Shown: positions 7,513 to 54,600, numbered from the stretch's first letter. The stretch is 64,000 nucleotides of DNA from an uncultured Planctomycetota bacterium (GCA_942492115.1 CALODL010000010.1:1635-65634), one strand, 5' to 3'. The notes: generated by a model not told the origin, from the letters alone. Translations and numbers: made by a program.

Positions 7513-9012
7513 ATGAGCTTGTCCACCTCCGGCCTACCTCCACAAACGCTATCCGCTCTCCTCGATGCCACGGCGGCCATCACATCGAGCCTCGACCTGC
7601 CCGTCGTCCTCCAGGCCATCAGTCAGTCCGCCGCAGCCGTGATGCGCGCCGAAGCGTCCAGTGTCATGCTGCTCGACAAGCGGCGCCAGAAACTGATTTT
7701 CGAAGCCGCCGTCGGCGATCGTTCCGATGCCTTGCGTGGTGAAGAGTTCGATGCTGATCTCGGCATCGCAGGGAGGGTGTGCCGTACGGGTAAGCCGGAA
7801 CTGGTTCTCGATGTGCGCCAGAACAAACATTTCTTCAAGGGAATCGACGACAAGAGCAGCTTCCAGACCCGCGGCATGGCTGCCGCTCCTCTGGTCCACC
7901 AGGGCGAAATCGTGGGCGCAGTCGAAGTCATCAATCGCATCGGGGCGGAGAACTTTACTGAAGAGGATCTCGACCTCCTGATGATTTTCGCCAACCTCGC
8001 CGCGGCCGGAGTGCGCAATGCGCAGGCCCATCACGAACTGATCAAGGAAAACGAAGGGCTCCGCTCGAGCATGCGACAGAGCGACCACGTGGTCGGACGC
8101 TCCGAAGCAATCTGTCAGGTCCAGCAGTTGTGCAACCGCGTCGCCCCCACCAACGCGTCCGTGCTGTTGCTGGGCGAAACGGGCGTCGGCAAGGAGTTGT
8201 TTGCCCGTTTCGTGCACAACCACTCCAAGCAGGCCGATCGACCGTTTATCGCTATCAACTGTGCGGCACTCGCCGAAACACTGCTGGAGAGCGAGTTGTT
8301 CGGCCACGAAAAGGGCTCGTTCACCGGAGCTGTCAGCCAGAAGATCGGACGTTTCGAGATGGCTGACAAAGGCACGTTGTTCCTCGATGAAATAGGGGAG
8401 ATCAGCCCATCCGTGCAAGTCAAACTGCTGCGCGTCCTCCAGGAACGTGAATTTGTTCGTGTCGGCGGCACTAAGACGACTTCGTGCGACGTGCGAATCA
8501 TCGCTGCGACCAACCGTGATCTCGAAAAAGAGATGAAAGAAAACAACTTCCGCGAGGATCTGTACTACCGCTTGAATGTCTTTCCGATCAACATTCCCCC
8601 ATTGCGCGAACGTCGTGAGGACATTCCCCAGTTGGTCGAACACTTCATCGTTCGAGCTGCGACCGATCTCAAAGTCGAGAAACCCGAAGTCGACGACGAG
8701 TGTCAGGCGCTCCTCGTCAGCCACAACTGGCCGGGCAATATTCGTGAGTTGCAAAACGTCATCGAACGGGCCGTTCTGATGGCAGATGGTGGTGTCGTTC
8801 GTGTCGAACACCTGCCCGCGCAAATAGCCGGCAGTCAGGCCAAAGAGGCCACGGCTGGCGATGCCAGCCTGTGGGGCTATGAAAAAGCCATGATCATCAA
8901 GGCGTTGGAGTCCAGCAACTGGAACCAGTCGGGGGCCGCTCGAGAATTGGGGATCAGCCGCGACAACTTGCGCTACCGAATCAAGAAATACAGCATCACG
9001 AAGCCAAGTTAG
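7513..9012 (+). CDS. Sigma-54-dependent transcriptional activator (GAF sensor - AAA+ sigma-54 interaction domain - Fis-type HTH)
   Basis: Walker A 'GETGVGKE', the GAFTGA-type loop '[15 protein letters not shown]', '[16 protein letters not shown]', and a C-terminal HTH '[19 protein letters not shown]'. Confidence 0.9.
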
Positions 9013-9013
9013 A

Positions 9014-10303
9014 TCATGACGCAGTCGCGATGGTTTCCAGTGGAGTGCCGTGCGCCGAGAGTCGTTGGGCCCGTGCCATCCGATCAGCCCAGACGAACAC
9101 GCCCAGAGGGAGCAGGATGAGCGGCTGAACGCCGATCCACTGGGCCACGCCATAGATCGGGAACATCCCAAACCCGATGATGAGTAACACACGACCAGCA
9201 ACTGACAGTCCTCCCTCCAGCGCCAACTGCTGGTCGACCAGTAGAACTACCGGCAGGATCAGTAGCGCGACCTCGTAGTACTGGGCATGGGGACTGATGA
9301 GCAGCATGCCTGCGCACACCTGAGCCCAGCGTGCAGCCAATCTCGACCCATCCGCCATCGTGCCGCGCCACTGCCACAGCAAGCGCACGATGATCAGGCC
9401 CACCGCGCCCCATGACGCCCACGTCCACAGCCTGGCGGCCTGGGCACGCCCGGCGACTTCGAGAACTTGGACCACTGAGAAATCGACGGCCTCGGTGATC
9501 GAGATGTGCGAGAAACCGCTCACCACGCGCTCGTGCTGACGATAGACACCGCCGATGGCGGATATCATCTCACCGGGCCATCCCCAGCCGCAGCCGACGG
9601 CACCGACTGCGTAGAGCACGCCCCCCACAAGGACGGCCGTCAACACTGTCCGCCACTGGCGCTGCATCGCAAGCAAGCCGATGAACGGCAGTGCGTATTG
9701 CGGCTTGAATAACAACAGGCCCAGAGCCATGCCGGCCAGCACCGCCTGACCGCGGACACAGGCCTGATATGCCACCACGAGCAACAACAGGGTCAGCGCA
9801 GCGTTTTGACCGCCCGTGACCGTCTGGCTCATGGGAAACCACAGCATTCCGATCATCGCAACGATGTTCCGATGCGGATAGAGGGCCGACAAGTGCCGTG
9901 CGAGGAGGAATATGGCGCAAGCGTACGCCGCGATCATTCCAATGGTATTGACGTGTAACGCCGCGAGATAAGGCAGGCGTGCGAGCACGCTGTAAGCCAC
10001 TGCAACTGGAGCCGGGTTAATGTAGTACGCCAGACCATCGAGATGCTCTGGCGCGAGTACCGCGTCCTGTGTCCTGCGCTGACGATGAATGTCGTAGAGC
10101 TCTGTGCCGTGTCCCTCCGCGACGATACGACCTGCCAGATAGAAGGCCATGAAGTCCCGCCCGACCACGACTCCATCATCGACGACGAGGCGCGGCAACG
10201 TCGCGTAGAACAGTACGAGGGCCAACAGCCACCCGGCGACTCCACTGACGCCCACAAGTCGCAACACCGCGGGTGAGGTCAAACGCATGATCACGGCAGA
10301 CAT
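9014..10303 (-). CDS. Polytopic GT-C-fold membrane protein, DUF2029/GT87-like (polyprenol-phosphate-sugar dependent glycosyltransferase candidate)
   Basis: 429 aa with about 10 predicted TM helices. An N-terminal loop DF motif ('VVGRDFMAFYLAG') and 'GGQNAALTLLLL', 'FKPQYALPF', 'ISPHAQYYEVALLILPV' are shared with the paralog at 10443-11780. Confidence 0.55.
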   Translation of the reverse strand: MSAVIMRLTSPAVLRLVGVSGVAGWLLALVLFYATLPRLVVDDGVVVGRDFMAFYLAGRIVAEGHGTELYDIHRQRRTQDAVLAPEHLDGLAYYINPAPVAVAYSVLARLPYLAALHVNTIGMIAAYACAIFLLARHLSALYPHRNIVAMIGMLWFPMSQTVTGGQNAALTLLLLVVAYQACVRGQAVLAGMALGLLLFKPQYALPFIGLLAMQRQWRTVLTAVLVGGVLYAVGAVGCGWGWPGEMISAIGGVYRQHERVVSGFSHISITEAVDFSVVQVLEVAGRAQAARLWTWASWGAVGLIIVRLLWQWRGTMADGSRLAARWAQVCAGMLLISPHAQYYEVALLILPVVLLVDQQLALEGGLSVAGRVLLIIGFGMFPIYGVAQWIGVQPLILLPLGVFVWADRMARAQRLSAHGTPLETIATAS

Positions 10304-10442
10304 GCCAGTTGTATCGACTCACGGACCCCATCCCAGCACTATCAGGATGTGCGGCCACCGCGTCTGCAGAGTTATGAGACGCCGACAGAGTGAACCATGA
10401 TAGAAGCGGCGATGCACCTCGTGATCCGGGGACAGCTGGTCG

Positions 10443-11780
10443 ATGTCATGGACGTCTACGAGGGATCCGTTCATGCAGTCACCTACGCACATATCCGTCG
10501 GGCGCCATCAGCAGATGAAACGACTGATGCACATGGCCACGTCGACGCCGATCCTCCTGGCTTTCGGGCTGCTACTGGCGTCTGGAAGTATATGGACCAT
10601 GGGCCGCTACGTCTCATCACTCGATGGTGTAACCGACGCCCAGGGTCAGCTCGTCGCGGGTGACTTTCTCGCGTTCTATACCGGCGGTACCATCGTGGGC
10701 TCGGGTCACGGCCCAGCCCTGTACGATCTGTCCTACCAGCACGACATCGAGCATACTCTGATCGGTGTACCAGACTCTCCATGGCAACCGTACGTCAATC
10801 CGCCCTTGCTCGCCCTGGCCTTGAGTTGGGTCAACGGTGTGCCATTCGCCACGGCAATGCGTTTGTTCTGCGCCGCAATGTGCGCTGCCGCAGCCGGAAG
10901 TCTGGTATTGGCCGGCAGGAGCCTGCCGGCGCTGCGCGGCGATAGAATGCGGTGGCTGGCCGTGTGCTTACTGGTGCTGTCATTCCATCCCATTGCACGC
11001 ACAATGCTGGGGGGACAGAACACCCCGTTGACACTTGTCCTGCTGACCGGTGTCTTCGCAGGACTCCATCACCGCCACAGCGCACTGGCCGGCGTGTGCC
11101 TGGGGTTGCTCAGTTACAAGCCACAGTTCGCGTTGTTCATTGGCCTTGTGGTCCTGGGGCAACAGCGCTGGCGTGTAGCCGTGTGGGCCATCGCCATCGG
11201 CCTCGCCCACTACGTGGTCGCCGGGGTGGTATGCGGGTTCGATTGGCCATGGGCCATGCTCGATGCTTTGGCGATCTATCAACCACTCGAGGCGGCATCC
11301 AGCTACTACACACACATTGCGATCCTTCCCGTTTGCAACCACAGCTTGCCAGCGCCATGGAACCACCTCGTCGCCGCGACGGCAATCACGGCGGTCATTG
11401 GACTGTTTGTCGTCGCCGTTCTACGAGCCCGGCACTCCGACAAGCTCGTGTTCGGTGCCGCCGTGTGCGTAACGATGCTGATCAGCCCGCACCTGCAGTT
11501 CTATGACGTTGGTGTGCTCGTGCTCCCCGTACTCATCGGTCTAGATGATCTGTGCGCACGGGGCCAGCAACCATCCGAATCCCTGCGGGGCCTGTTGTGC
11601 GCGGGATACCTCGCATTCCCAATCTATGCGTTCAGCCATATGCTTGGTTTCCAACCCCTGATCCTATGGCCCCTGGGCGTGTTCCTGTGGCTGTGCCACC
11701 GGCTGTGGACCGCAGGACAGCCCAGTGTCATACCCGCCAGCAACCCGAGCATCGACCACTGCGAGAGGGTGCCAGGATGA
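10443..11780 (+). CDS. Paralogous DUF2029/GT87-like GT-C membrane protein (start uncertain: 10443, 10473 or 10515)
   Basis: 'GDFLAFYTGG', 'GGQNTPLTLVLL', 'YKPQFALFIG', 'ISPHLQFYDVGVLVLPVL'. Its stop overlaps the next gene's start (ATGA at 11777-11780). Confidence 0.55.
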   Translation: MSWTSTRDPFMQSPTHISVGRHQQMKRLMHMATSTPILLAFGLLLASGSIWTMGRYVSSLDGVTDAQGQLVAGDFLAFYTGGTIVGSGHGPALYDLSYQHDIEHTLIGVPDSPWQPYVNPPLLALALSWVNGVPFATAMRLFCAAMCAAAAGSLVLAGRSLPALRGDRMRWLAVCLLVLSFHPIARTMLGGQNTPLTLVLLTGVFAGLHHRHSALAGVCLGLLSYKPQFALFIGLVVLGQQRWRVAVWAIAIGLAHYVVAGVVCGFDWPWAMLDALAIYQPLEAASSYYTHIAILPVCNHSLPAPWNHLVAATAITAVIGLFVVAVLRARHSDKLVFGAAVCVTMLISPHLQFYDVGVLVLPVLIGLDDLCARGQQPSESLRGLLCAGYLAFPIYAFSHMLGFQPLILWPLGVFLWLCHRLWTAGQPSVIPASNPSIDHCERVPG

Positions 11781-12565
11781 GTGACACCATTATCGTTGTG
11801 CCCTGCTACAACGAAGAAAGCAGGTTGGATCTCACGCCGTTCGTTCAGCATGCTCAGCGGTTTTCGCGGACGCGGTTCCTGTTCGTCGACGACGGCAGCA
11901 GCGACGATACGTCCGATCTCATTCTGACGGCCGGGGTCGCGCGTACCGAGCAGATCGACTTGCTGACGATGCCACAAAACATGGGCAAAGCCGAAGCCGT
12001 GCGCCATGGATTCCAGGAGGCATTCAGCTCGGCTCCACGCTTTGTCGGATTCTGGGATGCCGACCTGGCAACCCCACTCGATGCCATTCCAGAATTCCAG
12101 TCCGTTCTCGAAGGCTCATGCGATCTCGACATGGTCTTCGGAGCACGCGTGCAGTTGCTCGGCAGGTCGATCGAACGCCACATGTGGCGCCACTACGTTG
12201 GGCGGGTGTTTGCCACAGCCGTCTCGATGGTGCTGCGGCTGCCGGTTTATGACACACAATGCGGGGCCAAGTTGTTTCGCAACGATGGCCGACTGGTGGA
12301 AGCCTTTGAAACACCGTTCCTGGCGCGGTGGGTTTTCGACGTCGAGATCATCGCCCGCTACATGAACATGCATCGCCGTGACCATCGACCTGCAGTGGAG
12401 GGCTGCATCTATGAGCTGCCTCTCGACCACTGGGAAGACGTTGCGGGCTCGAAGCTCAAACCGTCCGATTTTCTGACTGCAGCGTTGGACCTCGCGCACA
12501 TCGCGTGGACCTATCAACTGAGTCCAGCGCTGGCCGACCCGCATGCGTGGCCTGCGAAAGGCTGA
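11777..12565 (+). CDS. GT2 polyprenol-phosphate sugar synthase (Dpm1/Ppm1/GtrB-like)
   Basis: 'IIVVPCYNEE', 'FVDDGSSDDT' (DxD) and 'FWDADLATP' (DAD). No C-terminal TM segments. The ATG at 11777 overlaps the upstream stop, consistent with translational coupling. The ORF track starts at 11552, but the conserved region begins at MSDTIIVV. Confidence 0.75.
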   Translation: MSDTIIVVPCYNEESRLDLTPFVQHAQRFSRTRFLFVDDGSSDDTSDLILTAGVARTEQIDLLTMPQNMGKAEAVRHGFQEAFSSAPRFVGFWDADLATPLDAIPEFQSVLEGSCDLDMVFGARVQLLGRSIERHMWRHYVGRVFATAVSMVLRLPVYDTQCGAKLFRNDGRLVEAFETPFLARWVFDVEIIARYMNMHRRDHRPAVEGCIYELPLDHWEDVAGSKLKPSDFLTAALDLAHIAWTYQLSPALADPHAWPAKG

Positions 12566-12957
12566 CTGTGGAAGAATTGGATCGGATGAGGCCCACGCAG
12601 GGGCGGGTTGCGGGGACTGTCGCCGCCCGACGGGCAGTGACCTACGGTGTGACCAGGCCCATGAGGCCGGCCACCATGACCATCGCGAGGGCAATCACAC
12701 CGACTACGAGAACATTCTCGATCGCGGTGCCGGCGACTTGTTCAATCCATAATCGCTTCATGGGTCCTGCCGAATCCCCCGGACAGCTGGTATGGTTCAC
12801 GTTACCTTAGTGTAGGCAACTGACCACCGAGGATCAACGCCCTATTGAACCCGCAGCCCTCTTGGCGGTATGCTCGCGTCGCATTGACGCCCGGCACTGC
12901 CGTGCACCTGGCGTAGTGAGCGTCCCGGCTCCCCTGAATCAGCATTAGGAACGTGTC

Positions 12958-17540: not shown

Positions 17541-18515
17541 TTACAATCGGCGTTGCGTGATGAACTCGGCCATGCTTTGGAGGGCTTCGCGCGCTGGCGA
17601 TGGCGGCAGCACACCCAATTGCTCGATGGCAGATTGAACTCGCTGGCAGGCCGCTTCACGGGCGTGTTCAATATGATCGCTCAGCTCGGCCACGACTTCG
17701 TCACGCGACGTCGAGCTGAGCCAGGTCTGTAGCTTGGGCCGTTCGGCGGGTGATGCCTGTGCCAGGAAGCTGATGACCGGCAACGTGGGCTTGCCCCGGG
17801 CCAGATCCAGGCCCAGCGACTTGCCGACCTCATCTTCGCTTCCCACCACATCGAGAACGTCATCGACGATCTGGAAGGCAATCCCAGCATCCATTCCATA
17901 AGACTCCATCGCGCTCTGCACGCGGGGCTCGGCTCCCGCGTACCTGGCTCCAAGCAGACAGGCCGTGCTGGTCAAGGCTGCGGTCTTGCGGGAAACGATC
18001 GTCATGTAGTCTTCGACGGTCAAATCCCAGTTCATGCGATGACTGACCTGAAGAAGCTCACCCTCGCAAACGGTGTTGGTGCAGGATGCTATGGTCCGGG
18101 CGGCGTACTGCGAATCAAGGCTGCTGCACAAGTGGTAGGCATGACTGATAAGGTAGTCGCCGATCAAAACCGCCGTCTCGTTCGTGGTCATCGCACAGAG
18201 GGTTGGTAAATTGCGCCGAACGTCGGCCTCGTCCAGCACGTCATCGTGCACCAGAGTGGCCATGTGAACCATCTCGACGACCGCCGCGAGCGTGATATGT
18301 TCGCGGGTTACGCGGCCACAAGCCCGCGCGGACAGCAGCAGGAGGATTGGACGCATCATCTTGCCGCGGTAGCGGCGAATGTGATCGCAGAGTTCCTGAA
18401 CAAAGTGCAGGTCCCCGCGGAGTTCCTCATCGAACAGTGCCTCGACCGCGCGTAGATCGTCTTCGATCATTGCTGTCGCCTGGCTGAGCGCTTGGATGGC
18501 TGGAATCGAGCTCAT
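17541..18515 (-). CDS. Polyprenyl diphosphate synthase (IspB/heptaprenyl-octaprenyl type)
   Basis: First and second Asp-rich motifs 'LVHDDVLDEADVRRN' and 'GIAFQIVDDVLD'. Confidence 0.9.
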   Translation of the reverse strand: MSSIPAIQALSQATAMIEDDLRAVEALFDEELRGDLHFVQELCDHIRRYRGKMMRPILLLLSARACGRVTREHITLAAVVEMVHMATLVHDDVLDEADVRRNLPTLCAMTTNETAVLIGDYLISHAYHLCSSLDSQYAARTIASCTNTVCEGELLQVSHRMNWDLTVEDYMTIVSRKTAALTSTACLLGARYAGAEPRVQSAMESYGMDAGIAFQIVDDVLDVVGSEDEVGKSLGLDLARGKPTLPVISFLAQASPAERPKLQTWLSSTSRDEVVAELSDHIEHAREAACQRVQSAIEQLGVLPPSPAREALQSMAEFITQRRL

Positions 18516-18915
18516 TCATCCTCCATCTGGACTGCCGGACGGACTCGGTCCAGTGTGTGTGGCATTCTAACGATCCGCCCCGTCGGTTTTCCAACGCTTT
18601 CAAAAGATTTGAAAGTCTTGGACTACAACAGTTAACGGCCCACTGTGCCCCCTTCAAATCAGGGCGACTGTTTATAAGGTGGCGGTCGATAAACAGGGGG
18701 TAGATTGGTGGCTCAGGAGGAGCCGTTAGTGACTCAAATCGTGTGCATCGTGGCAACGCTGACTTGCGTAGCGGCAATCGCCGGCTCATCCGGGGCACTG
18801 CTTCGCGAGACCTCCTGTCGACCTTGCAATTGTCTCATTCGCCGTGATGCCCGGGCTGCCCCCAGTGTGGCACGTATCGGCGTCACGACTCGCTCGTTCA
18901 ACAGGAGATCTGACG

Positions 18916-20505
18916 ATGGCGATCTATGATTCCGATGGTGATCGCGGCCCATCGCCCCAGCGGCTGCCAGGAGCCAGGTTGGCCGGCGTCATCGGGACGC
19001 TGCTCAGTATCGTGGTGGGCATTCTGGCGCTGTATTGGTTCGTCTTCCGCATCGAGGTGCGCGAAGGCGAAGTACTGGTGCTGGTCAACAAGACCGGTCG
19101 GCGCCTTCCCGCCGAACTGGCCACCGATTATGGCGACCAGGTTGTACTCTACCCCGACCTCGTCGCTGCGCTCGCAGAGCACAGCGGCATGACGCCTGAA
19201 AAGGTCCTCGATTCCTACAAAGGGATTCGATACGATCCGCTGCCCACTACACGATATTTCTTCAACCCATATTCCTACAAACGCGTACGTATGCCGATGA
19301 CCGAAATCGGTCAGGACGAGGTTGGCGTGCTCATCAGACGCTACGGCAAGCCATTGCCCAGTCCGAAGACCGTCGCGACCGCCGCGGACGAACGCGGGCC
19401 TGTCGCCCAATTCATCGAACAAGGCTATTGGCCTGTCAATCTTCTGGCCTACGAAGTCCAGAAGTTCCCCGTCATGCAGATTCCGGAGGGACACGCGGGT
19501 GTGGTCACACTTCTGAGCGGCAGTGACCCGGAGACTCACAATACATATACCGTCGCACCGGGTGAAAAGGGGGTCCAGCGCACAACGCTGCCACCGGGAC
19601 GTGTGCCATACAATCCGTACCTTCGAAAAATAGAGATCGTCGATATTCGCAGCCACAAGTACGACATGCTCGACGAGGATGCCATTCGCTTTCCGTCCAA
19701 CGACGGTTTCACGATCACGCTCGAAGGTACCATCGAATGGGCCATCATGCCTGACCAGGTTGCAGAAGTGACCGTGGCATACGGTGACGAGCAGGACATT
19801 CTCAACAAGGTTATCCTGCCCAATGCCCGCAGCATCTCACGCATCCAGGGTTCGAAACTCAAGGCCCGCGAGTTCATCAGCGGCAAACTGCGGCAGCAGT
19901 TCCAGGAGCGCCTGCTCGCCGAACTGCGTGGTGAGTGCCGCCAGCAGGGCATCAACATCAAGGCAGCCCTCGTCCGTGAGATTCAGCCCCCCTCGGAAAT
20001 TGCCGGCCTCATTAGCCACCGCGAACAGGCCGACCAGGAGATCGAGCGGTCGACCAACCAGATGGAAGAGGCGAAGGCCGAAGTCATGCTGGTCGAGCAA
20101 CGCGAGCTGCAATCACGCAATCGTGATTTGGGCAACGCCCGCCGCGATGTCGTTGGCTTGATCAAGAAGGCTGAACAGCGCCAGACGGTTGCTGTCACAC
20201 AGGCCAATCGTGAGCTCGAGGTCAGTCGACTCCACCTCGAAGCCGCCGAAAAGGAAGCCGCGGCGTTGCGTTCGCGCGGCCAGGCGGAGGCCAACGTCGT
20301 GCTGTTCGAGTACCAGGCCAGAGCGGAACCACTCGAGTCTGCTGTCGCAGCCTTTGGCGGCGGAGAGGCCTATGCCCAGTTGTTTTTCCTTGAAAAAATC
20401 GCACCTTCGATTCAAACCATCCTGACCAACACCGACGGGAACTTCGCGGAGATCTTCAAGCAGTTCCAGTCATTCCCGGCCTCAACACCGACCGGAGGTG
20501 AATAG
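18916..20505 (+). CDS. SPFH/band-7 domain membrane protein with N-terminal TM, an inserted domain and a C-terminal coiled coil (flotillin/HflK-like)
   Basis: TM 'VIGTLLSIVVGILALYWFVF', SPFH core '...RFPSNDGFTITLEGTIEWAIMPDQVAEV...', and a long coiled coil (EQADQEIERSTNQMEEAKAEV...). Start taken at MAIYDSDG. Confidence 0.7.
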   Translation: MAIYDSDGDRGPSPQRLPGARLAGVIGTLLSIVVGILALYWFVFRIEVREGEVLVLVNKTGRRLPAELATDYGDQVVLYPDLVAALAEHSGMTPEKVLDSYKGIRYDPLPTTRYFFNPYSYKRVRMPMTEIGQDEVGVLIRRYGKPLPSPKTVATAADERGPVAQFIEQGYWPVNLLAYEVQKFPVMQIPEGHAGVVTLLSGSDPETHNTYTVAPGEKGVQRTTLPPGRVPYNPYLRKIEIVDIRSHKYDMLDEDAIRFPSNDGFTITLEGTIEWAIMPDQVAEVTVAYGDEQDILNKVILPNARSISRIQGSKLKAREFISGKLRQQFQERLLAELRGECRQQGINIKAALVREIQPPSEIAGLISHREQADQEIERSTNQMEEAKAEVMLVEQRELQSRNRDLGNARRDVVGLIKKAEQRQTVAVTQANRELEVSRLHLEAAEKEAAALRSRGQAEANVVLFEYQARAEPLESAVAAFGGGEAYAQLFFLEKIAPSIQTILTNTDGNFAEIFKQFQSFPASTPTGGE

Positions 20506-20507
20506 CC

Positions 20508-22202
20508 ATGAAGAAACTCATTCCCATCCTTTTCGTTGCCGCGCTCGGCAGCGTAGGAGCCATCAGTGCCCTGGTGTGGACGACATGCCGTATCTACGTT
20601 CCCGTTGACCAGTGCGCTGTCCTGACCCGCAAGACAGGAGAGCGGTTGCCGACTGGCCAGATCGTGGCCACTGAGCCACACCAGAAAGGCATCCAGATGG
20701 AAGTTCTCGGGCCAGGCAGGCATTTCTACGACCCCATCCGCTGGGAATGGCGCCTCGAACCACTGACGGTCATTCCAGCCGGTGCCCCCAAGACCTGGCA
20801 GTGGATCCACTCGCTCGACGCCCGGCAACGCGACGAGCTCCGAGCGGGAACTTTCAAGTTCAAGGGCGAGTTCCCCGAGATTGGTGTGGTTACGCGCAAG
20901 GTTGGCAGTGCCCCACCGTCATCGAGCGATGACAGCGATGACGGACAGACGATCGTATCCATGGATTCGGGCCATCGTGGTATTCTCCGCGAGGTCCTGA
21001 CACCGGGAACATACAAACTCAATCCCTATGTCTACGATGTCCAACTTCACCCGGCAACAGTTATTCCTGCGGGGTTCGTCGGCGTGGTCACCAATCTCGT
21101 CGGACATACCCCGGGGCGCTCGGCAACCCCCAGCGCTGACGCCGAACCGTCGCCTTACGAAGTCCGCCCTCTGGCGCTCCCCGGAGAGCGTGGAACGTTG
21201 CGTAATGTCCTGCAACCGGGCGTGTATTTCATCAACCCCAAGATACAGAAAGTCACCCTCATCGAAATCGGATACAACGAGTACTCCGAACTCGGGACCA
21301 AGGCGACCGAGGACCCCATTAGTTTCCCGTCCGATACCGGTTACATGATCCAGGTCGGCGTCACGGTCGTCTGGGGCATCGATCCGCAGCATGCCGCGGA
21401 GGTCATCAACGAATTCGGTAACATCGATCGTGTACTCGATAAGGTCATCAAGCCACAATTACGTTCGATCTGTCGCAACATCGGGTCGACTTATGCCGCG
21501 CGCGATTTCATTCAGGGCGAAAAACGGGAGATGTTCCAGAAGGATCTGACCGACGAAATGCGGCGGGTCTGTGGCTCGAAGAACGTCGATATTCTCCTGG
21601 CGCTGGTTCGCGAAATAGAGGTGTTGTCCCCCGACCGTGGCGGCGAGGTCACCGAGGACTTGCGGCGCACGATACAGGAGAGTTTCGTAGCTGTTGAGAA
21701 CCGCCTGACCAAGGAAAAGCAAACCGAAGCTGCAACGGTTCGCGCCCAACTCGAAGAAACACAGAAGAAGATCGATATTGCCCGCGAGAACATCCAGGCA
21801 GAAACGCGCCTGCAGGTGGCCGGAATCGGCGCGGAGGGCGAGAAATCCTCGGCAGAAATCGACGCTCATACGGCCCTCGAAGTGGCCGGAATACAGCAGC
21901 AAGTTGCCCAATTGGATGCCCAGCGCACCGAGATCCTCGGACAAGCGAACGCCGATGTCACCAAGATGAAGAAAGGCGCCGAGGCCGAAGGATACGCCAT
22001 GCTGGTGAATGCTCTGGGCAGCCCGAAGGCGTACAACCTGTACACCTTCGCGCAGAACTTCGAACCGCAATCGATTCAGATGTTCTACGCGGGCGACGGC
22101 ACCTTGTGGACCGATCTCAAACGCTTCGAAGATGTCGGCGCCGCCAGGCTCATGGAACAGACCTCTCAACCGGCCCCTCGGCTTCCGCGAAACGGCGAGT
22201 GA
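20508..22202 (+). CDS. Second SPFH/band-7 domain membrane protein (paralog of the upstream gene; an HflK/HflC-like tandem pair)
   Basis: TM 'LIPILFVAALGSVGAISALVW', SPFH core 'ISFPSDTGYMIQVGVTVVWGIDPQHAAEV', and a C-terminal coiled coil. It starts 3 nt after the upstream stop. Confidence 0.7.
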   Translation: MKKLIPILFVAALGSVGAISALVWTTCRIYVPVDQCAVLTRKTGERLPTGQIVATEPHQKGIQMEVLGPGRHFYDPIRWEWRLEPLTVIPAGAPKTWQWIHSLDARQRDELRAGTFKFKGEFPEIGVVTRKVGSAPPSSSDDSDDGQTIVSMDSGHRGILREVLTPGTYKLNPYVYDVQLHPATVIPAGFVGVVTNLVGHTPGRSATPSADAEPSPYEVRPLALPGERGTLRNVLQPGVYFINPKIQKVTLIEIGYNEYSELGTKATEDPISFPSDTGYMIQVGVTVVWGIDPQHAAEVINEFGNIDRVLDKVIKPQLRSICRNIGSTYAARDFIQGEKREMFQKDLTDEMRRVCGSKNVDILLALVREIEVLSPDRGGEVTEDLRRTIQESFVAVENRLTKEKQTEAATVRAQLEETQKKIDIARENIQAETRLQVAGIGAEGEKSSAEIDAHTALEVAGIQQQVAQLDAQRTEILGQANADVTKMKKGAEAEGYAMLVNALGSPKAYNLYTFAQNFEPQSIQMFYAGDGTLWTDLKRFEDVGAARLMEQTSQPAPRLPRNGE

Positions 22203-48618: not shown

Positions 48619-51600
48619 CTACCGTTCGCGTCGGTGCACGACTTCGATGTGCGCTGCCGTAACCTCTTCAATCGCGATGTAGCCGTGCGCTGACGTCGGA
48701 AACAATACCGTACGCGCAGAGGCATCGTCGGGATCGTAAGCAAGCGACACGATGAAAGTGCCCCGTGCATCTTTGCTGGCCCGCAGCGTCAGTGTGGCGA
48801 GGTATGCACCGTCCAATGCATTCACACCTGGACGATCAAGCCCTGCTACCAACTGCCGCGTGCGCAGGTTGTAGGCATCCCACCAGGCGCCGGGATCGAA
48901 TACATGATCATCATGCTCCTGAACGGCCAAATCGATGAGATCGAGTGCCCCCGCCGTGCCACCGAGCACCTCGAAATGGAGTTGATAACCTCGTAAGTCA
49001 AAGACTGCAGCATCCAGGCGTACGGTCACCTCCACGGTACCGCCCGGGCGAACGGCGGGGCTCTGCGGGTCCAGACGTACGGCAGTGGTCCCAACGACCT
49101 CGGGGGTGATCATCGGCGACGGACCGCCATCCAACGGGCAACTGCACGACGACGCCCCCTCGAAAGCGTTCAAGGCGGCAAATGCATCGTTGCCGTCACA
49201 CACACCATCTGGTTCGCAGCTACCAAACTGACCACCGCAATCCACATTAAAGGCCACTGGAGCCTCCACCTCACACGGGAATGATGCCGGCGGCGGTGTG
49301 TTGGGATCGACGTCAGCGAAACAGTTCAACGCCAGAAAGCGATCGTTACCATCTGCGGTCCCATCAGGTGCACACGCGCCGAACTGGCCGCCCATGTCGC
49401 CGAATACGACTTCGGTTGCCTGGCACACACCCGCTCCGCACAGCCACCACACGCAGCCATCGTCGCGCACCCCATTGTTGTCCAGATCGGCGCAGTCGGA
49501 CACGATCGTACAGTCACCCCCTCCACAACCGATGGCATCTTCATCGAGTTCGTCATCGCAGTCATCATCGATACCGTCGCACGTCGCATCCTCTGCCGCC
49601 GGTTCGCCCGGCATACAGTCATCGATGACCACACCCTCGACACAGACGGTCATGCCACTGGCCATACACGCGCCTATCCCACAGAGGGTCTTACTGGCTT
49701 CGAAGTCCTCATCGAAGATGGCATCACAGTCATCATCGATGCCATCACACGTCGCGTCATCCACGGCCGGAGTACCCGGGACGCAACTGTCGGTCGGGAC
49801 ACCGTCAACACAACCCGACAGCCCCTCGGACGCACACGCACCCACGCCGCACGTCGTCGCCGTGCTCATCACATCCTCGTCGGTCAGACCGTCGCAATCA
49901 TCGTCGACCCCGTCGCACGTCGCATCGTCCACGGCCGGAGTGCCCGGGACGCAACTGTCGGTCGGGACACCGTCAACACAGCCCGACAACCCCTCGGACG
50001 CACACGCACCCACGCCGCACGTCGTCGCCGTGCTCATCACGTCCTCGTCGGTCAGACCGTCGCAATCATCGTCGACCCCGTCGCACGTCGCGTCGTCCAC
50101 GGCCGGAGTGCCCGGGACGCAACTGTCGGTCGGGACACCGTCAACACAGCCCGACAGCCCTTCGGACGCACACGCACCCACGCCGCACGTCGTCGCCGTG
50201 CTCATCACGTCCTCGTCGGTCAGACCGTCGCAATCATCGTCGACCCCGTCGCACGTCGCGTCGTCCACGGCCGGAGTACCCGGAACGCAGCTGTCGGTCG
50301 GGACACCGTCAACACAGCCCGACAGCCCTTCGGACGAACACGCGCCCACACCGCACGTCGTCGCCGTGCTCATCACGTCCTCGTCGGTCAGACCGTCGCA
50401 ATCATCGTCGACCCCGTCGCACGTCGCGTCGTCCACGGCCGGAGTACCCGGAACGCAGCTGTCGGTCGGGACACCGTCAACACAGCCCGACAGCCCTTCG
50501 GACGCACACGCGCCCACACCGCACGTCGTCGCCGTGCTCATCACGTCCTCGTCGGTCAGGCCGTCGCAATCATTGTCGACCCCGTCGCACGTCGCGTCGT
50601 CCACGGCCGGAGTACCCGGAACGCAGCTGTCGGTCGGGACACCGTCAACACAGCCCGACAGCCCTTCGGACGCACACGCACCCACGCCGCACGTCGTCGC
50701 CGTGCTCATCACGTCCTCGTCGGTCAGACCGTCGCAGTCCTCGTCCACTCCGTCACACAGCGTGTCACTGACCGCTGCACCCGCGAACGGGTCACATGAA
50801 TCCTCGACAGCACCCGCCACACACGTCAGCACACCGGTGTTGCCGGCACAGGCTCCTACGCCACACTCTGATGGACTGGACACATAATCTTCATCGAACG
50901 AACCATCACAATCGTCATCGAGGCCATCGCATGTCGGATCGGTTGGCGCGGGTGGAGAATGGTCACACACCCCTGCCACACAGGTATCGAGGGTGCAGTC
51001 GTCAAAGTCATCACACAAACTGTCGTCGGGCACGCCCACGCAGGACCCGTCGGTACAGGTATCGACGGTGCACACGAGACCATCATCACATGGCAACGTG
51101 TTGTCCGTCGCGACGCAATTCCCGGCCCCGTCACACGCATCATCGGTACATGGATTGGTGTCGGCCGTACACGGGGTTCCCGCAGAACTGGCCACATTGC
51201 TACACACACCTGCGGTACAGGAATCATCAGTGCACTCGAGACCATCGGCGCAATCGGCCGGGGTCACGACATCGAGGGTCGCAACCAGACTGGTCGCATC
51301 CCCACAGGAGTTGGTCACGACCACGTCGTAATCACCCGCATCGGCAGGTCCCACTGGATCGATGAGCAACGTCGGTTGATCTGCTCCAGGAATCGGTGTG
51401 CCCTGGAATCGCCATGCATAGGTCAACGGCACGCTGCCACTCGGCGTGACGTCCAACACCACGCTGTCGCCCGAGCACACGCTGGAAGATTCAGGTGGAG
51501 TGACAATCACCGGCGGCACACATGGCCCCGTGATGCAGAAGCGCTCGAAAGAAAACACCTGCGCTGCCGGCGCATTGCGGTGAGTCGCAAACAGACCCGC

Positions 51601-54600
51601 GAACGTCACGGGGCCCGTCATCCCATCCGGTAGAACCACGCCATTGAACAGGTCGGAGGTCATCACGACGGTGCCGACCGGCACAGCGGCGCCACCATTC
51701 ACGGCATAGGCGGCGGTCACCTCCTGGGTCGTTGGATCGAGTGACATCGACAGAACGACGTCGTCACCGCTGACCGCGATGTTCTCGATCTCGACCCCAC
51801 CGGGGCTGCTCCCGCCCTCCTCTCCACGGACCTCGACGTCATAGTTCCCGGGGGTCGATGAGAAAACAATGAGTTTGACGTAGGTGTCCTCATCGAGAAA
51901 GACCCACCCACCTGCCTGCGCAAACCCGCGCGTCGCGACGGGCAAGTTGTTGAGCGCAATGTCAACATTCAGTTCGGACGTCGCATCGACGGCCACACCG
52001 AGTCCATTGTCCAGTGAGTTGTTGGAGGTGAACTGGATGCCGGCCGTCGTCGTTAGCGCCAGCTCACCACTCACGATGTCCACATCGATTTGCCCGGGCA
52101 GATACCCGGCCGCGTTCGATGGCGGATCGACCATGGTGAATCCCGTGCCGTCCCCATCGACATCCTCCAAGCCCCCCTCGTCCATCTCCCAGTCGAGCTT
52201 GAACGGCAGGCTGACGGGCACATCGACGCAGTCGAGCATTGAAATCGGGTTGCACCCGGCACCTGGCGTCACTTGTAAGGTGACCATGAGTGTCGCGTCG
52301 GCGTAGCCACTGGATGTGGCCGTTACCGTCGCCGTGTACGCCCCCGGCGCCAGGCCATCGGTCGCGACTTCTACATCGAACGGGATGTCGGCCGTGACCT
52401 GCGCCGCGACCGTCAACCAAGTCGGCTCCAGACCGGTCGCATCGTCAACCGCCGCAATGTCCGCAGTCGGGGATTGTCCGTCGTTGGCGGTGACCGTGGT
52501 GCTGGCCGAGTCGATATTGCTGCCTTCTTCCATCATGAACGGCAGGAGCGCGGGTGAGAACGCCAATGCAGGCGGAGCAGCGGGCTCCGCAAGGCAGAAA
52601 TCCTCGAAGACGAAATCGAGTGTCGAGCCGTTGCGCTGCGTTGCGAATACACCCGCGAAACTGACTGGGCCGGTCATGCCGTCGGGCAAAGTGACGCCAG
52701 AGAACAGGGCATTGTTCACGGTGATCGCATCAACCAGCATCTCGCCACCACCGTTGACCTGCACAAGCCCACTGACCTCGGAAGTTTGCGGATCGAGGAC
52801 CATCGTCAGCTTGACGTGATCACCAGGTACGACGATGCTCGCGGTAGCAGAACTCTCGACGAACTGATTGCTCTGCTCGTAGAGAATCTCGACCTTGTAG
52901 CTGCCGGTGACGTCCGAAACGACGACCAACTTGATGTAGTGCGATTCATTCAGGAAGAACCACACGCCCGCCTGCTCGAACTGACCGCTGACGGCAGGCA
53001 GGTTGATTATCGTTGTTTCAATGCGCGTGTCCTGGGCGCTGGCATCCCAGGCGACGCCCAGGCCATTATCCAGAGAATTGGGATTGTTGGCCGTCTCGCC
53101 GAACTGAATCCCGGGCGTCGTTGTGATCGTGAGTGTTCCCGCTCCAGTGTCGACGGCCAGATTGTTCGGCAGGTATCCGGCCCCATTGCTCGGCGGATCA
53201 ACCATGGTGAAGCCGGTCCCCACGCCAGAATTGTCCACCAGACCGTCTTCCGAAGCGTCCCAGTCAAGCTTGTGCGGCAGCGTAACCGGCACGTCGGCGC
53301 AGACGGGTTGGGCCAACACAGCGCAATCGCCGGATGGAGCCAACTGCACGTTCATGACCACGAAATCAAAGTCCTGGTAGTCGCCATGAAATGCGTCCTC
53401 GAAGGCGACGAAATAGGCGTATGGCACAACGAAACCCTGGCGGTCCTTCAACGGGTAAACCCTTGCGGAATGCGCTGACTGCGCTGGATTGAGCGCGATG
53501 TTAAGATCGTCTTCGGTGTAAGCCGTGTGCGAAGGGCTGGTGATGTAGAATCCGAATGCCCCAGGCCCAGGATCGAATGTCGTCACCCCGGAAGTCATCT
53601 CGGGAAACAGCGTCTGGTGCTCCGCCGGACTCGATGCGCCGCTGAGTACCCCCACTTGCGTGAGGGACGGGGCTGCGCCGTTCGGCCCGTAGTACCCATA
53701 GGGCAGCGCGAATGCTGGAGAATAACGTGCGACCGGCACCATGACCACGTCACCGGATCCGGACTTTGTGAACAGTGATGCGGGCACTTCGTCACCAATG
53801 GGTGCTGCGTCGACGCCCAGCTCCAGCTCCGTTCCCCCGACGTCGATAGCATGCCCCAACGTCTGAACAACATCGTGCAACGTAGGTTCATTGGAGCCCT
53901 CGAGGCCGTCGGCACTGAGGCCGTGAACACCCACCTGAACGACGGCCTCATTGGGGTCGTCGCTGGCGATCTCAACAGCGGCGCTGAATGTGCCAACGGC
54001 TGTCGCACCGGGCGAAAAAGCGATATCGATCATCACTTCCGCGCCGGGTATCAGCGTCACGGGGGTGGTCGGCGGGGTCACGATGGTGAACTCACCCGCA
54101 TCAGCGCCGGTCAATGCCACGGTTGCAATCTCGAGATCTGCCGTGCCGGTGTTGGATAGAGTCAAAACCTGCGCTGGCGTGACTGTATCCTTAAGGCCGC
54201 TGTACACCAGGTCAGATGCCGACAAGCCAATATCCGGTACACCGGATCCGCCGAGAGGACGACACAACGTGATTTTGGATGCCCCGAATTCAGATACATA
54301 AAGATGCCCATTGTCGAGGTTCTCGACGACATCGAGCGGGTTATTGAAACCGGTGAGACCCGTGATCCCCGTCTGCGATGCCACGATCTCCAAACCGCTG
54401 CCACTTGGCGTCAGGGCCATGAGATCATCTCCGCTGCTGTAGCGGACGACCAGCAATGCCCCCTGAAGGTCACCGGCTGAACGATACTCGATGATCCCAT
54501 TCGGCGATTTGTGCGTACCAAAATCGAAGACCGCCCCACGGTAGTTGCTGTCCGGCAGGGTCCCCTCGGGATATTCGGTGACCTCGAGTGGATCTACTGC

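Follow-up and report, generated by a model that had tools for sequence, protein, structure and literature searches.

What is made, and onto what it is transferred, by two divergently transcribed glycosyltransferase (GT) genes of the GT87 family and the GT2 gene that overlaps one of them is the question raised by positions 9014 to 12565 of a 64,000-nucleotide stretch of DNA (the whole of which is called the window here) from an uncultured Planctomycetota bacterium (GCA_942492115.1 CALODL010000010.1:1635-65634). The answer proposed is a pathway built on a polyprenyl-phosphate sugar, with Flp pilins as the most likely targets of glycosylation, a reading for which, taken as a whole, the case is evenly balanced. 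Its enzymatic part, in which the GT2 would synthesise the lipid-linked donor and the GT87 proteins would transfer the sugar, is judged highly probable from sequence comparison and structural models, and the choice of a Flp pilin as the acceptor, for which gene context is the basis, falls slightly short of an even chance.

Two GT87 paralogues and the overlapping GT2

All three open reading frames (ORFs) were found exactly where an earlier note on this DNA had placed them. GT87-A (9014-10303, minus strand) is a polytopic GT-C protein of 429 amino acids which belongs to GT87/DUF2029 and to an 'A-like' subclade of it. GT87-B (10443-11780, plus strand, 445 amino acids) is assigned to a 'B-like' subclade and is a full-length paralogue of GT87-A, the two sharing 34% identity over 412 alignment columns (E 2e-54); the database copy of GT87-B (P0001, source NCBI) starts 10 codons later at position 10473 and has 435 amino acids. 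The GT2 (11777-12565, plus strand, 262 amino acids) is identical to the database protein P0037 and is an ALG5-like, putative polyprenyl-phosphate hexose synthase without a transmembrane helix. As had been described, the ATG of the GT2 and the TGA of GT87-B overlap as ATGA (11777-11780, in the sequence ...CCAGGATGAGTG...), and a purine-rich, Shine-Dalgarno-like GAGAGGG is located just 5' of the GT2 start. The overlap putatively couples the translation of the GT2 to that of GT87-B. The closest syntenic loci are found in Planctomycetota metagenome-assembled genomes, and an ATGA-type overlap of four nucleotides is also present in locus L002.

The assignment of both transferases to GT87 is borne out by the PF09594 hidden Markov model (HMM), all 237 positions of which are covered by each protein with scores well over the cutoff of 25 bits (71.9 bits and E 8.7e-20 for GT87-A, 72.8 bits and E 4.6e-20 for GT87-B). 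The GT-C fold that had been predicted for these proteins is likewise recovered in an AlphaFold2 model, which was built for GT87-A only from 36 homologues (predicted local distance difference test score, pLDDT, 94.5; predicted TM-score, pTM, 0.93). Its best fold matches in the PDB are the PimE structures 9dm5 and 9dm7 (E 5e-5, TM-score 0.62-0.71), followed by PIG-M (glycosylphosphatidylinositol mannosyltransferase I), ALG6, PIGU and ArnT which all share the GT-C architecture, and PimE is also the sole sequence match of the GT87-A family profile in the PDB (E 2e-7). Profile searches with the family return about 25,000 representatives at E<=1e-3, and about 2,400 representatives of the non-actinobacterial GT87 clade at E<=1e-30.

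Across the 36 GT87 homologues 11 alignment columns are invariant (alignment A1), including, in GT87-A numbering, D50 in the first external loop, Q166 (GGQN), K200-P201 (KPQ) and H339 (SPH), and GT87-B carries all of the invariant residues. The invariant aspartate follows the first transmembrane helix and opens a short helix, in the context GRDFMAFY in GT87-A and AGDFLAFY in GT87-B. PimE uses D58 as its catalytic base and requires Q163, and its K195 and H322 hold the phosphate (PMC12041525); by sequence comparison D50, Q166, K200 and H339 of GT87-A appear to parallel these four residues. Q166 aligns directly with the GQ motif of PimE in the HMMER alignment; K200 is offset by two positions from the PimE lysine and the histidine region lies outside the alignment, both being matched by position only, and D50 is likewise equated with D58 by position only because the alignment starts at residue 88.

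The likeness to PimE, which works with the donor synthase Ppm1, takes in the Pfam and CAZy family, the top fold match and sole sequence match in the PDB and an invariant first-loop aspartate, glutamine, lysine and histidine that appear to parallel those of PimE. PimE furthermore depends on a polyprenyl-phosphate sugar made by a GT2, as is proposed for the GT87 proteins of the window. There are clear differences, however, in that GT87-A is only 16-18% identical to PimE in the fold alignments, and in that PimE is actinobacterial whereas the relatives of the window proteins belong to the Planctomycetota; the acceptor cannot be a phosphatidylinositol mannoside (PIM). A further difference is that the GT2 of the window is ALG5-like and putatively coupled in translation to a transferase gene, whereas ppm1 and pimE are unlinked in mycobacteria.

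The putative use of a polyprenyl-phosphate sugar by GT87-A and GT87-B is suggested only by the adjacent GT2. The GT2 matches PF00535 (E 5e-15) and contains the motifs FVDDGSSDD and FWDADL, to which the earlier note had drawn attention. D39 and D94-A95-D96 are invariant across 35 homologues, the latter forming the DxD metal/nucleotide motif of the GT-A fold of the GT2. The top 17 fold matches of its model (pLDDT 85) are ArnC, GtrB and an archaeal dolichyl-phosphate mannose synthase (DPMS), with E-values from 2e-13 to 5e-10 and TM-scores of 0.65-0.70, and glucosyl-3-phosphoglycerate synthase (GpgS) comes next in the list (E 5e-10, TM-score 0.64, compared to E 2e-13 and TM-score 0.70 for the best lipid-phosphate match). 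In searches of PDB sequences with the GT2 profile the top seven matches are ArnC, GtrB and DPMS, with DPMS ranked under the other two, and these matches are limited to the N-terminal nucleotide-binding half of the protein. GpgS is never among the sequence-search matches, and the GT2 groups first with lipid-phosphate enzymes, though by a modest margin in fold. Neither of the two outcomes that the earlier note had named as refuting its reading was thus obtained.

The description of the GT2 as Ppm1/Dpm1-like is not favoured by the names of its relatives. The family comprises more than 8000 homologues at 50-60% identity in Planctomycetota, Chloroflexota, Myxococcota and Gemmatimonadota, many of which are named in IMG as dolichyl-phosphate beta-glucosyltransferase (the ALG5 function) and not as mannosyltransferase. 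These names are automatic annotations, and the sugar is therefore not fixed as glucose. The GT2 scores 14-44 bits against the NCBIfam equivalogs for ArnC, PpgS, PgfS and Dol-P-hexose transferase, the cutoffs of which are 182-600 bits, and is therefore not an equivalog of any of these. Taken together, the absence of a transmembrane helix, the failure to reach any NCBIfam cutoff and the names of its relatives make the GT2 ALG5-like and not a Ppm1/Dpm1 orthologue, a class assignment that is judged by relatives' names. Mycobacterial Ppm1 is itself a lipid-phosphate synthase without a transmembrane helix. Human DPM1 also has none, so that such synthases exist, and a published phylogeny groups bacterial sequences with ALG5 (PMC4973528).

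The divergent GT87 genes are separated by 139 bp (10304-10442), and this region presumably holds the promoters of both. The shared promoter region of about 140 bp that had been proposed is correct as to its length, but scans for sigma-70-like promoters and for terminators between 8900 and 13100 found nothing, and since the promoter scans of 10304-10442 were empty, promoter function there can only be presumed. On the other side of GT87-A lies a gene for a GAF-sigma54-HTH enhancer-binding protein (7513-9012, plus strand), which is convergent with GT87-A, ends one nucleotide before its stop codon and is also kept in L002 and L174. Because this conserved activator gene is located next door, the divergent region was scanned for sigma-54 promoters as well; it contains no matches, the total of 29 for the window is lower than the shuffled mean of 34, and this candidate was rejected.

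Pairing of GT87 with GT2 genes and the proposed pathway

Related loci were compared in a sample of about 170, made up of 80 genomic and 80 metagenomic loci retrieved with the family profile plus others, which were scanned with HMMs for GT87, ALG5-like GT2 and Flp and by BLAST for Tad proteins. Only HMM or BLAST matches were counted, as the greedy ORF caller yields shadow ORFs in high-GC loci, and the clade counts use loci of at least 8 kb with up to 10 kb scanned per side. The loci span Planctomycetota, Myxococcota, Binatia, Desulfobacterota, Acidobacteriota and Alpha- and Betaproteobacteria.

A GT2 gene lies within 3 kb of GT87 in 16 of the 40 loci of the clade that contains GT87-A and GT87-B (the A/B clade), compared to none of 56 in a distant, mostly alphaproteobacterial clade, and 10 of these 16 GT2 genes are of the ALG5-like type. 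The gene order varies, the GT2 being downstream of GT87 with a four-nucleotide overlap in the window and L002, upstream in L016, L030 and L031, and convergent in L014, L033, L086 and L099. This recurrence of GT87-GT2 adjacency in different orders and in several phyla supports the view, already put forward in the earlier note, that the locus combines a donor synthase with a GT-C transferase. When the GT87 genes are sorted by their likeness to GT87-A or GT87-B, the GT2 accompanies the B-like genes (at least 16 loci, in varied orientation) and the A-like genes accompany flp genes or tad operons.

In some lineages the place beside GT87 is taken by a classical GtrB/ArnC-type GT2 with C-terminal transmembrane helices. 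Such genes are found 34-274 bp from GT87 in L019 and L024, 4.6 kb from it in L005, and as the next gene of the operon in Burkholderia; by hydropathy scan the partner enzymes of L019, L024, L005 and Burkholderia have two to three transmembrane segments each. This non-orthologous replacement by a GtrB-type enzyme implies that the ALG5-like GT2 likely does the same job.

Tandem GT87 arrays of two to four copies are common among the relatives. Two paralogues fed by one donor had been taken to indicate two acceptor specificities, which stands as one option only, as the tandem arrays fit sequential steps equally well. Together with the additional multi-spanning membrane proteins described below, the arrays agree no less well with a short glycan being built up step by step than with two specificities.

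Two further groups of GT87 loci differ in their surroundings. In L036-L083 (Bradyrhizobium, Afipia, Tardiphaga and Xanthobacteraceae) GT87 genes of the distant clade often occur as tandem pairs with no GT2 nearby; Bradyrhizobium lipid A carries mannose residues, and these proteins could be lipid A mannosyltransferases. In the alphaproteobacterial metagenome-assembled genomes represented by L020, L021, L023 and L026, GT87 is flanked by genes for an FAD-oxidase and a short-chain dehydrogenase, which from a reading of their sequences we take to resemble DprE1/DprE2, suggesting a lipid-phosphate donor of the arabinose type and not a hexose.

It is proposed that the GT2, as a soluble or peripheral enzyme, would take a hexose off a nucleotide sugar and load it onto polyprenyl phosphate on the cytoplasmic side of the membrane, as its family and fold suggest; the name of its relatives points to glucose, which is unproven. 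The lipid-linked sugar would then be flipped across the membrane by a protein encoded outside the module. No GtrA-like gene is present between 9014 and 12958, and a BLAST search of the window with the Burkholderia GtrA, which is a weak test, gave no match. In the periplasm GT87-A and GT87-B would use the lipid-linked donor, as indicated by their family, fold and conserved residues, with the invariant first-loop aspartate acting as the base and the invariant lysine and histidine holding the phosphate as in PimE.

The lipid carrier, it had been suggested, could come from the polyprenyl synthase encoded at 17541-18515 (minus strand), which is an unlikely source. The enzyme is of the trans-type (PF00348, quinone-type), the usual bacterial sugar carrier being made by a cis-prenyltransferase, and its gene is part of the same ffh-rpsP-trmD-rplS-tatD synteny block in L002 and L086. 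Its best NCBIfam matches are encapsulin-cargo polyprenyl transferase, IdsA and hepta-, octa- and solanesyl-diphosphate synthases, all of which are below cutoff.

Flp pilins and other candidate acceptors

The acceptor would most likely be a Flp-type (Tad) pilin, modified in the inner membrane before assembly, a step that is proposed from gene context. The sugar may be added directly to serine or threonine or may extend a sugar placed by another enzyme, and the two GT87 paralogues may act in sequence or serve different pilins. flp genes or tadA, tadB, tadC, tadZ, tadE or tadG are present in the flanks of 15 of the 40 A/B-clade loci and 4 of the 56 loci of the other clade (Fisher p=4.6e-4), and 13 of the 17 flp matches are located no more than 3.3 kb from the GT87 gene, though up to 10 kb were scanned on each side. 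It is tentatively proposed, with somewhat less than even confidence, that these GT87 proteins are dedicated Flp/Tad pilin glycosyltransferases, occurring in tandem sets of two to four and fed by a clustered GT2. Together they would make up a widespread and so far undescribed module accessory to tad loci, ranging from Planctomycetota to Burkholderia, and the window would then be a planctomycete version that unites the flp-linked (A) and GT2-linked (B) subfamilies.

The arrangement of these neighbours is often operon-like. In the syntenic loci, full-length flp genes matching PF04964 are located in the interval from ffh to the glycosylation genes: one in L002, three in L086 (directly upstream of the GT2 and on the same strand), one followed by an A-like GT87 in L173, and two each in L007 and L008, those of L008 abutting GT87 in the order flp-flp-GT87. 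Outside this group the link recurs. L094 reads flp-GT87-GT87-flp on one strand, both L003 and L005 adjoin complete tad loci, the GT87 gene of L010 is 2.3 kb away from tadG, tadE and flp, and L019 (Desulforhopalus) has flp and tadE. A GT2-GT87 pair is found about 7.5 kb from tadC-B-A in L016 and L030 (Myxococcales) and in L031 (Binatia), and two GT87 genes are found 5 kb from tadA in L040 (Acidobacteriota). In L164 four tandem GT87 genes are followed by flp-flp-tadZ-tadA, and in L068 (Microvirga) the order TPR-GT87-flp-prepilin peptidase-tadZ-A-B-C-E-G places GT87 inside the tad operon.

The canonical three-component form of the module is the GT87-GT87-GT2-GtrA operon of Burkholderia. In the RefSeq-annotated Burkholderia pyrrocinia and Burkholderia sp. 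FXe9, which offer the clearest case of the link with flp and tad, this operon is divergent from three flp genes and tad genes, arranged as flp-flp-flp-prepilin peptidase-cpaB-secretin-tadG-tadE-tadZ-cpaF. A custom HMM scan gives an equivalent full layout for B. cenocepacia, and in Cupriavidus metallidurans such a scan found a GT87 gene alone and not the rest of the module. The operon is contained in L170 (11950-16002), L171 and L169 (B. pyrrocinia, sp. FXe9 and B. cenocepacia), where it is followed by genes for aidA-like inclusion-body proteins. The equivalents in strain J2315 are BCAS0294 (GtrA-like), BCAS0295 (glycosyltransferase), BCAS0296 and BCAS0299 (Flp subunit) in the region BCAS0292-BCAS0308, and literature mentions of these genes are limited to expression tables (PMC3417382, PMC3244429). 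BCAS0294-BCAS0301, which comprises GtrA, GT2, two GT87 proteins and Flp pilins, resembles the window in having the module architecture beside flp genes. It differs in that its GT87 proteins share no more than 26-29% identity with GT87-A and GT87-B, in having a GtrB-type GT2 and in the presence of a GtrA gene.

Other membrane proteins accompany the GT87 genes of related loci. A protein of about 490 amino acids with multiple transmembrane segments, no Pfam match and a first loop of the NDVDIYWQ type follows A-like GT87 genes in L006 (7622-9088), L007 (5404-6921 and 11319-12899) and L173 (7700-9166); it is fused to GT87 as the C-terminal half of a 911-amino-acid protein in L008 (9971-12706, P0191), has no counterpart in the window, and may be a further GT-C-like enzyme. 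Multi-spanning proteins with a WDD/YDD motif in the first loop and C-terminal TPR repeats lie beside GT87 in L001 (3268-5469), L007 (8215-9867) and L019 (6577-8451). We take these to resemble the PMT/TMTC (protein O-mannosyltransferase)-type GT-C and TfpW architecture, Pfam having matched the TPR repeats only, and these proteins may be the enzymes that start protein O-glycosylation. Another recurrent neighbour of GT87 and tad genes, in loci from Myxococcota, Binatia and Acidobacteriota (L005, 13842-15056; L016; L030; L031; L040, 7464-9857), is a large membrane protein that carries a spermine/spermidine synthase-like domain.

In the window itself, a short Flp-like ORF (12642-12761, minus strand, 39 amino acids) is located 77 bp past the GT2 and is convergent with it. 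Its sequence, MKRLWIEQVAG/TAIENVLVVGVIALAMVMVAGLMGLVTP, matches the custom Flp HMM at 5e-16 within the analysed loci, and in an alignment with 16 Flp pilins it keeps the glycine and the invariant Glu5 of the G/xxxxEY motif and has asparagine in place of Tyr6. From its sequence the ORF is probably a truncated or degenerate pilin, and the full-length flp genes of L002, L086 and L173 hold the equivalent place. A frameshift that would restore the tail was sought, and the downstream frames show nothing Flp-like.

Several observations weigh against a Flp acceptor. The ORF of the window has no Pfam match at E<=0.01, PF04964 included, and stops just past the hydrophobic helix, lacking the exposed C-terminal tail which is present in the other 16 pilins; it would therefore be a poor acceptor. 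No tadA, tadB or tadC gene is found within the 64-kb window, and this together with the truncation of the ORF implies that the true acceptor pilins of this genome would be encoded elsewhere. Synteny inherited among the Planctomycetota accounts for part of the association with flp and tad genes, which is weaker after collapsing to lineages (8 of 32 vs 4 of 56, p=0.026), and in about 60% of the A/B-clade loci neither flp nor tad genes are seen within 10 kb. Nor can the comparison clade serve as a true null, as the link is also seen there (L068, L164 and L040). On the enzymatic side, a hydropathy scan detects no transmembrane segment in the GT2, and the margin of its best fold match over GpgS (E 2e-13 vs 5e-10) is modest. 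The characterised GT87 enzymes extend glycans or glycolipids, and to our knowledge none is known to start on a protein. Finally, the structure of the Caulobacter Tad pilus has no glycan density (PMC10710030).

The alternative that survives best, which we consider less likely but plausible, keeps the enzymes as proposed and makes the acceptor an envelope glycolipid or polysaccharide such as lipid A, the lipopolysaccharide (LPS) core, a lipoglycan or a membrane lipid, hopanoids among them. The analogy would be with ArnT on lipid A and with PimE, MptC and AftC on PIM, lipomannan and lipoarabinomannan, and the flp neighbours would reflect the co-regulation of surface structures or inherited synteny. 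MptC/Rv2181 and AftC act on glycolipids or lipoglycans. Apart from the elongation of protein O-mannose, the characterised roles of GT87 enzymes considered here are on such molecules, for example that of PimE on PIM (PMC12041525), and BCAS0296 is catalogued under 'other potential surface polysaccharides' (PMC3244429). That flp and tad genes are missing from the surroundings of most A/B-clade loci also agrees with a lipid or polysaccharide acceptor, as does the contig of P0006 (JGI 3300056388), on which GT87-GT87-PMT_2 (PF13231) is directly preceded, on one strand, by genes for the mevalonate pathway, a squalene-hopene cyclase and HpnCDE-like proteins, an order that makes a link to isoprenoid lipids possible and thus counts against pilins. 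However, no lipid, LPS or polysaccharide gene is recurrent beside the module across lineages, whereas flp and tad genes do recur, often in operon-like order with GT87, and even the P0006 contig has Flp-like and Tad genes 5.6-8 kb downstream of the GT87 pair.

It is improbable that the module serves a general periplasmic O-glycosylation of many secreted or surface proteins, large Cys-rich ones possibly among them, in which GT87 would elongate sugars begun by a PMT/TMTC-like enzyme encoded elsewhere. In its favour, PimE elongates O-mannose on many mycobacterial mannoproteins after PMT has started the chain (PMC12757957), and the ALG5-like GT2 family has a much wider distribution than the A/B GT87 clade. 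The TPR proteins beside GT87 in L001, L007 and L019, with their presumed likeness to PMT/TMTC, and the PMT_2 protein of the P0006 contig would also fit such a system. Nevertheless, there is no PMT-like gene in or near the module and a BLAST search of the window gave no match, the recurrent neighbour is specifically flp/tad, and nothing in the window is specific for general O-glycosylation. A giant cysteine-rich protein, which the earlier note had offered as a neighbouring acceptor, lies 36 kb away and has no conserved linkage to the module.

That protein (48619-55575, minus strand) has 2318 amino acids with MopE-like cysteine-rich metal-binding motifs, immunoglobulin-like domains and a ConA-like domain. 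As an acceptor it was rejected for its distance, with housekeeping genes and genes for SPFH, PDH-E2 and POT-transporter proteins lying between it and the module. At 18844-22202 (plus strand) two long SPFH/Band_7 paralogues (553 and 564 amino acids) are encoded side by side, the first of which is also present in L002.

The idea that the GT2 is a soluble GT-A enzyme which acts like GpgS on a small molecule or a lipid-linked oligosaccharide, its coupling to GT87-B not being that of a donor synthase and a transferase, is very improbable: the lack of a transmembrane helix, the NCBIfam scores far under all equivalog cutoffs, the sequence matches confined to the N-terminal half and the nearly equal fit of the GpgS structures (TM-score 0.64 vs 0.70) would suit it, but GpgS is absent from the sequence searches in which ArnC, GtrB and DPMS come first, as they do by fold, other lineages hold an unambiguous GtrB-type enzyme in the same slot by GT87 with GtrA after it in Burkholderia, GT-C enzymes require lipid-linked donors, and lipid-phosphate synthases without transmembrane helices exist, such as human DPM1 (PMC4973528).

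Known systems and significance

The proposed pathway towards Flp pilins follows the logic that is shared by GtrA/GtrB/GtrC, ArnC/ArnT, CsbB/YfhO and PpgS/Rv3779, in which a GT2 makes a polyprenyl-phosphate monosaccharide, a GT-C enzyme transfers the sugar outside the cytoplasm and the genes are clustered. ArnC and GtrB are the proteins that the GT2 model of the window resembles best. Unlike the Gtr and Arn systems, however, the window module has no gene for a flippase of the GtrA or ArnE/F type, its GT2 lacks the two C-terminal transmembrane helices of GtrB and ArnC, and it has two GT87 paralogues in place of one GT-C enzyme of the GtrC or ArnT type. ALG5 with ALG6/ALG8 offers another parallel, as the relatives of the GT2 bear the ALG5 annotation and ALG6 ranks high in the list of folds that match GT87-A; the likeness to ALG5 rests on the annotation of these relatives, the sugar of the window GT2 being unproven, and eukaryotic ALG5 has an N-terminal transmembrane anchor.

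By analogy, the closest precedent for the proposed modification of Flp is TfpW of Pseudomonas aeruginosa, a GT-C enzyme which is encoded beside pilA and glycosylates the type IVa pilin with a sugar derived from a lipid phosphate (bioRxiv 10.1101/2020.04.19.049825). As with the flp-linked GT87 genes, the GT-C gene lies beside a pilin gene; the lipid-phosphate sugar used by TfpW is made by adjacent genes. TfpW differs in belonging to another GT-C family with a TPR domain, in its type IVa pilin substrate and in transferring D-arabinofuranose. Literature searches found nothing comparable to TfpW for Flp/Tad pilins or for GT87, and full-text searches brought up no link between GT87 or DUF2029 and Tad pili. 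Glycosylation of Flp is merely hinted at, via RcpC in Aggregatibacter (PMC12307814), with no enzyme named in the literature searched.

The enzymology of a GT2 donor synthase and a GT-C transferase is already known. In the literature searched, the characterised GT87 enzymes are actinobacterial and act in cell-envelope synthesis, and no function is assigned to any GT87 outside the actinobacteria. What appear to be new are the non-actinobacterial GT87 clade, its split into GT2-linked and flp-linked members and its recurrent placement at tad loci. A Flp pilin target is testable in the tractable Burkholderia, in which three Flp genes adjoin the equivalent genes (BCAS0294-0297). Tad pili underlie adhesion, the formation of biofilms and colonisation in many bacteria, and if the proposed reading is true, the module of GT87 and GT2 beside flp would supply the missing enzymes of Flp pilin glycosylation, and Tad pili would join type IVa pili as substrates of pilin glycosylation by GT-C enzymes.

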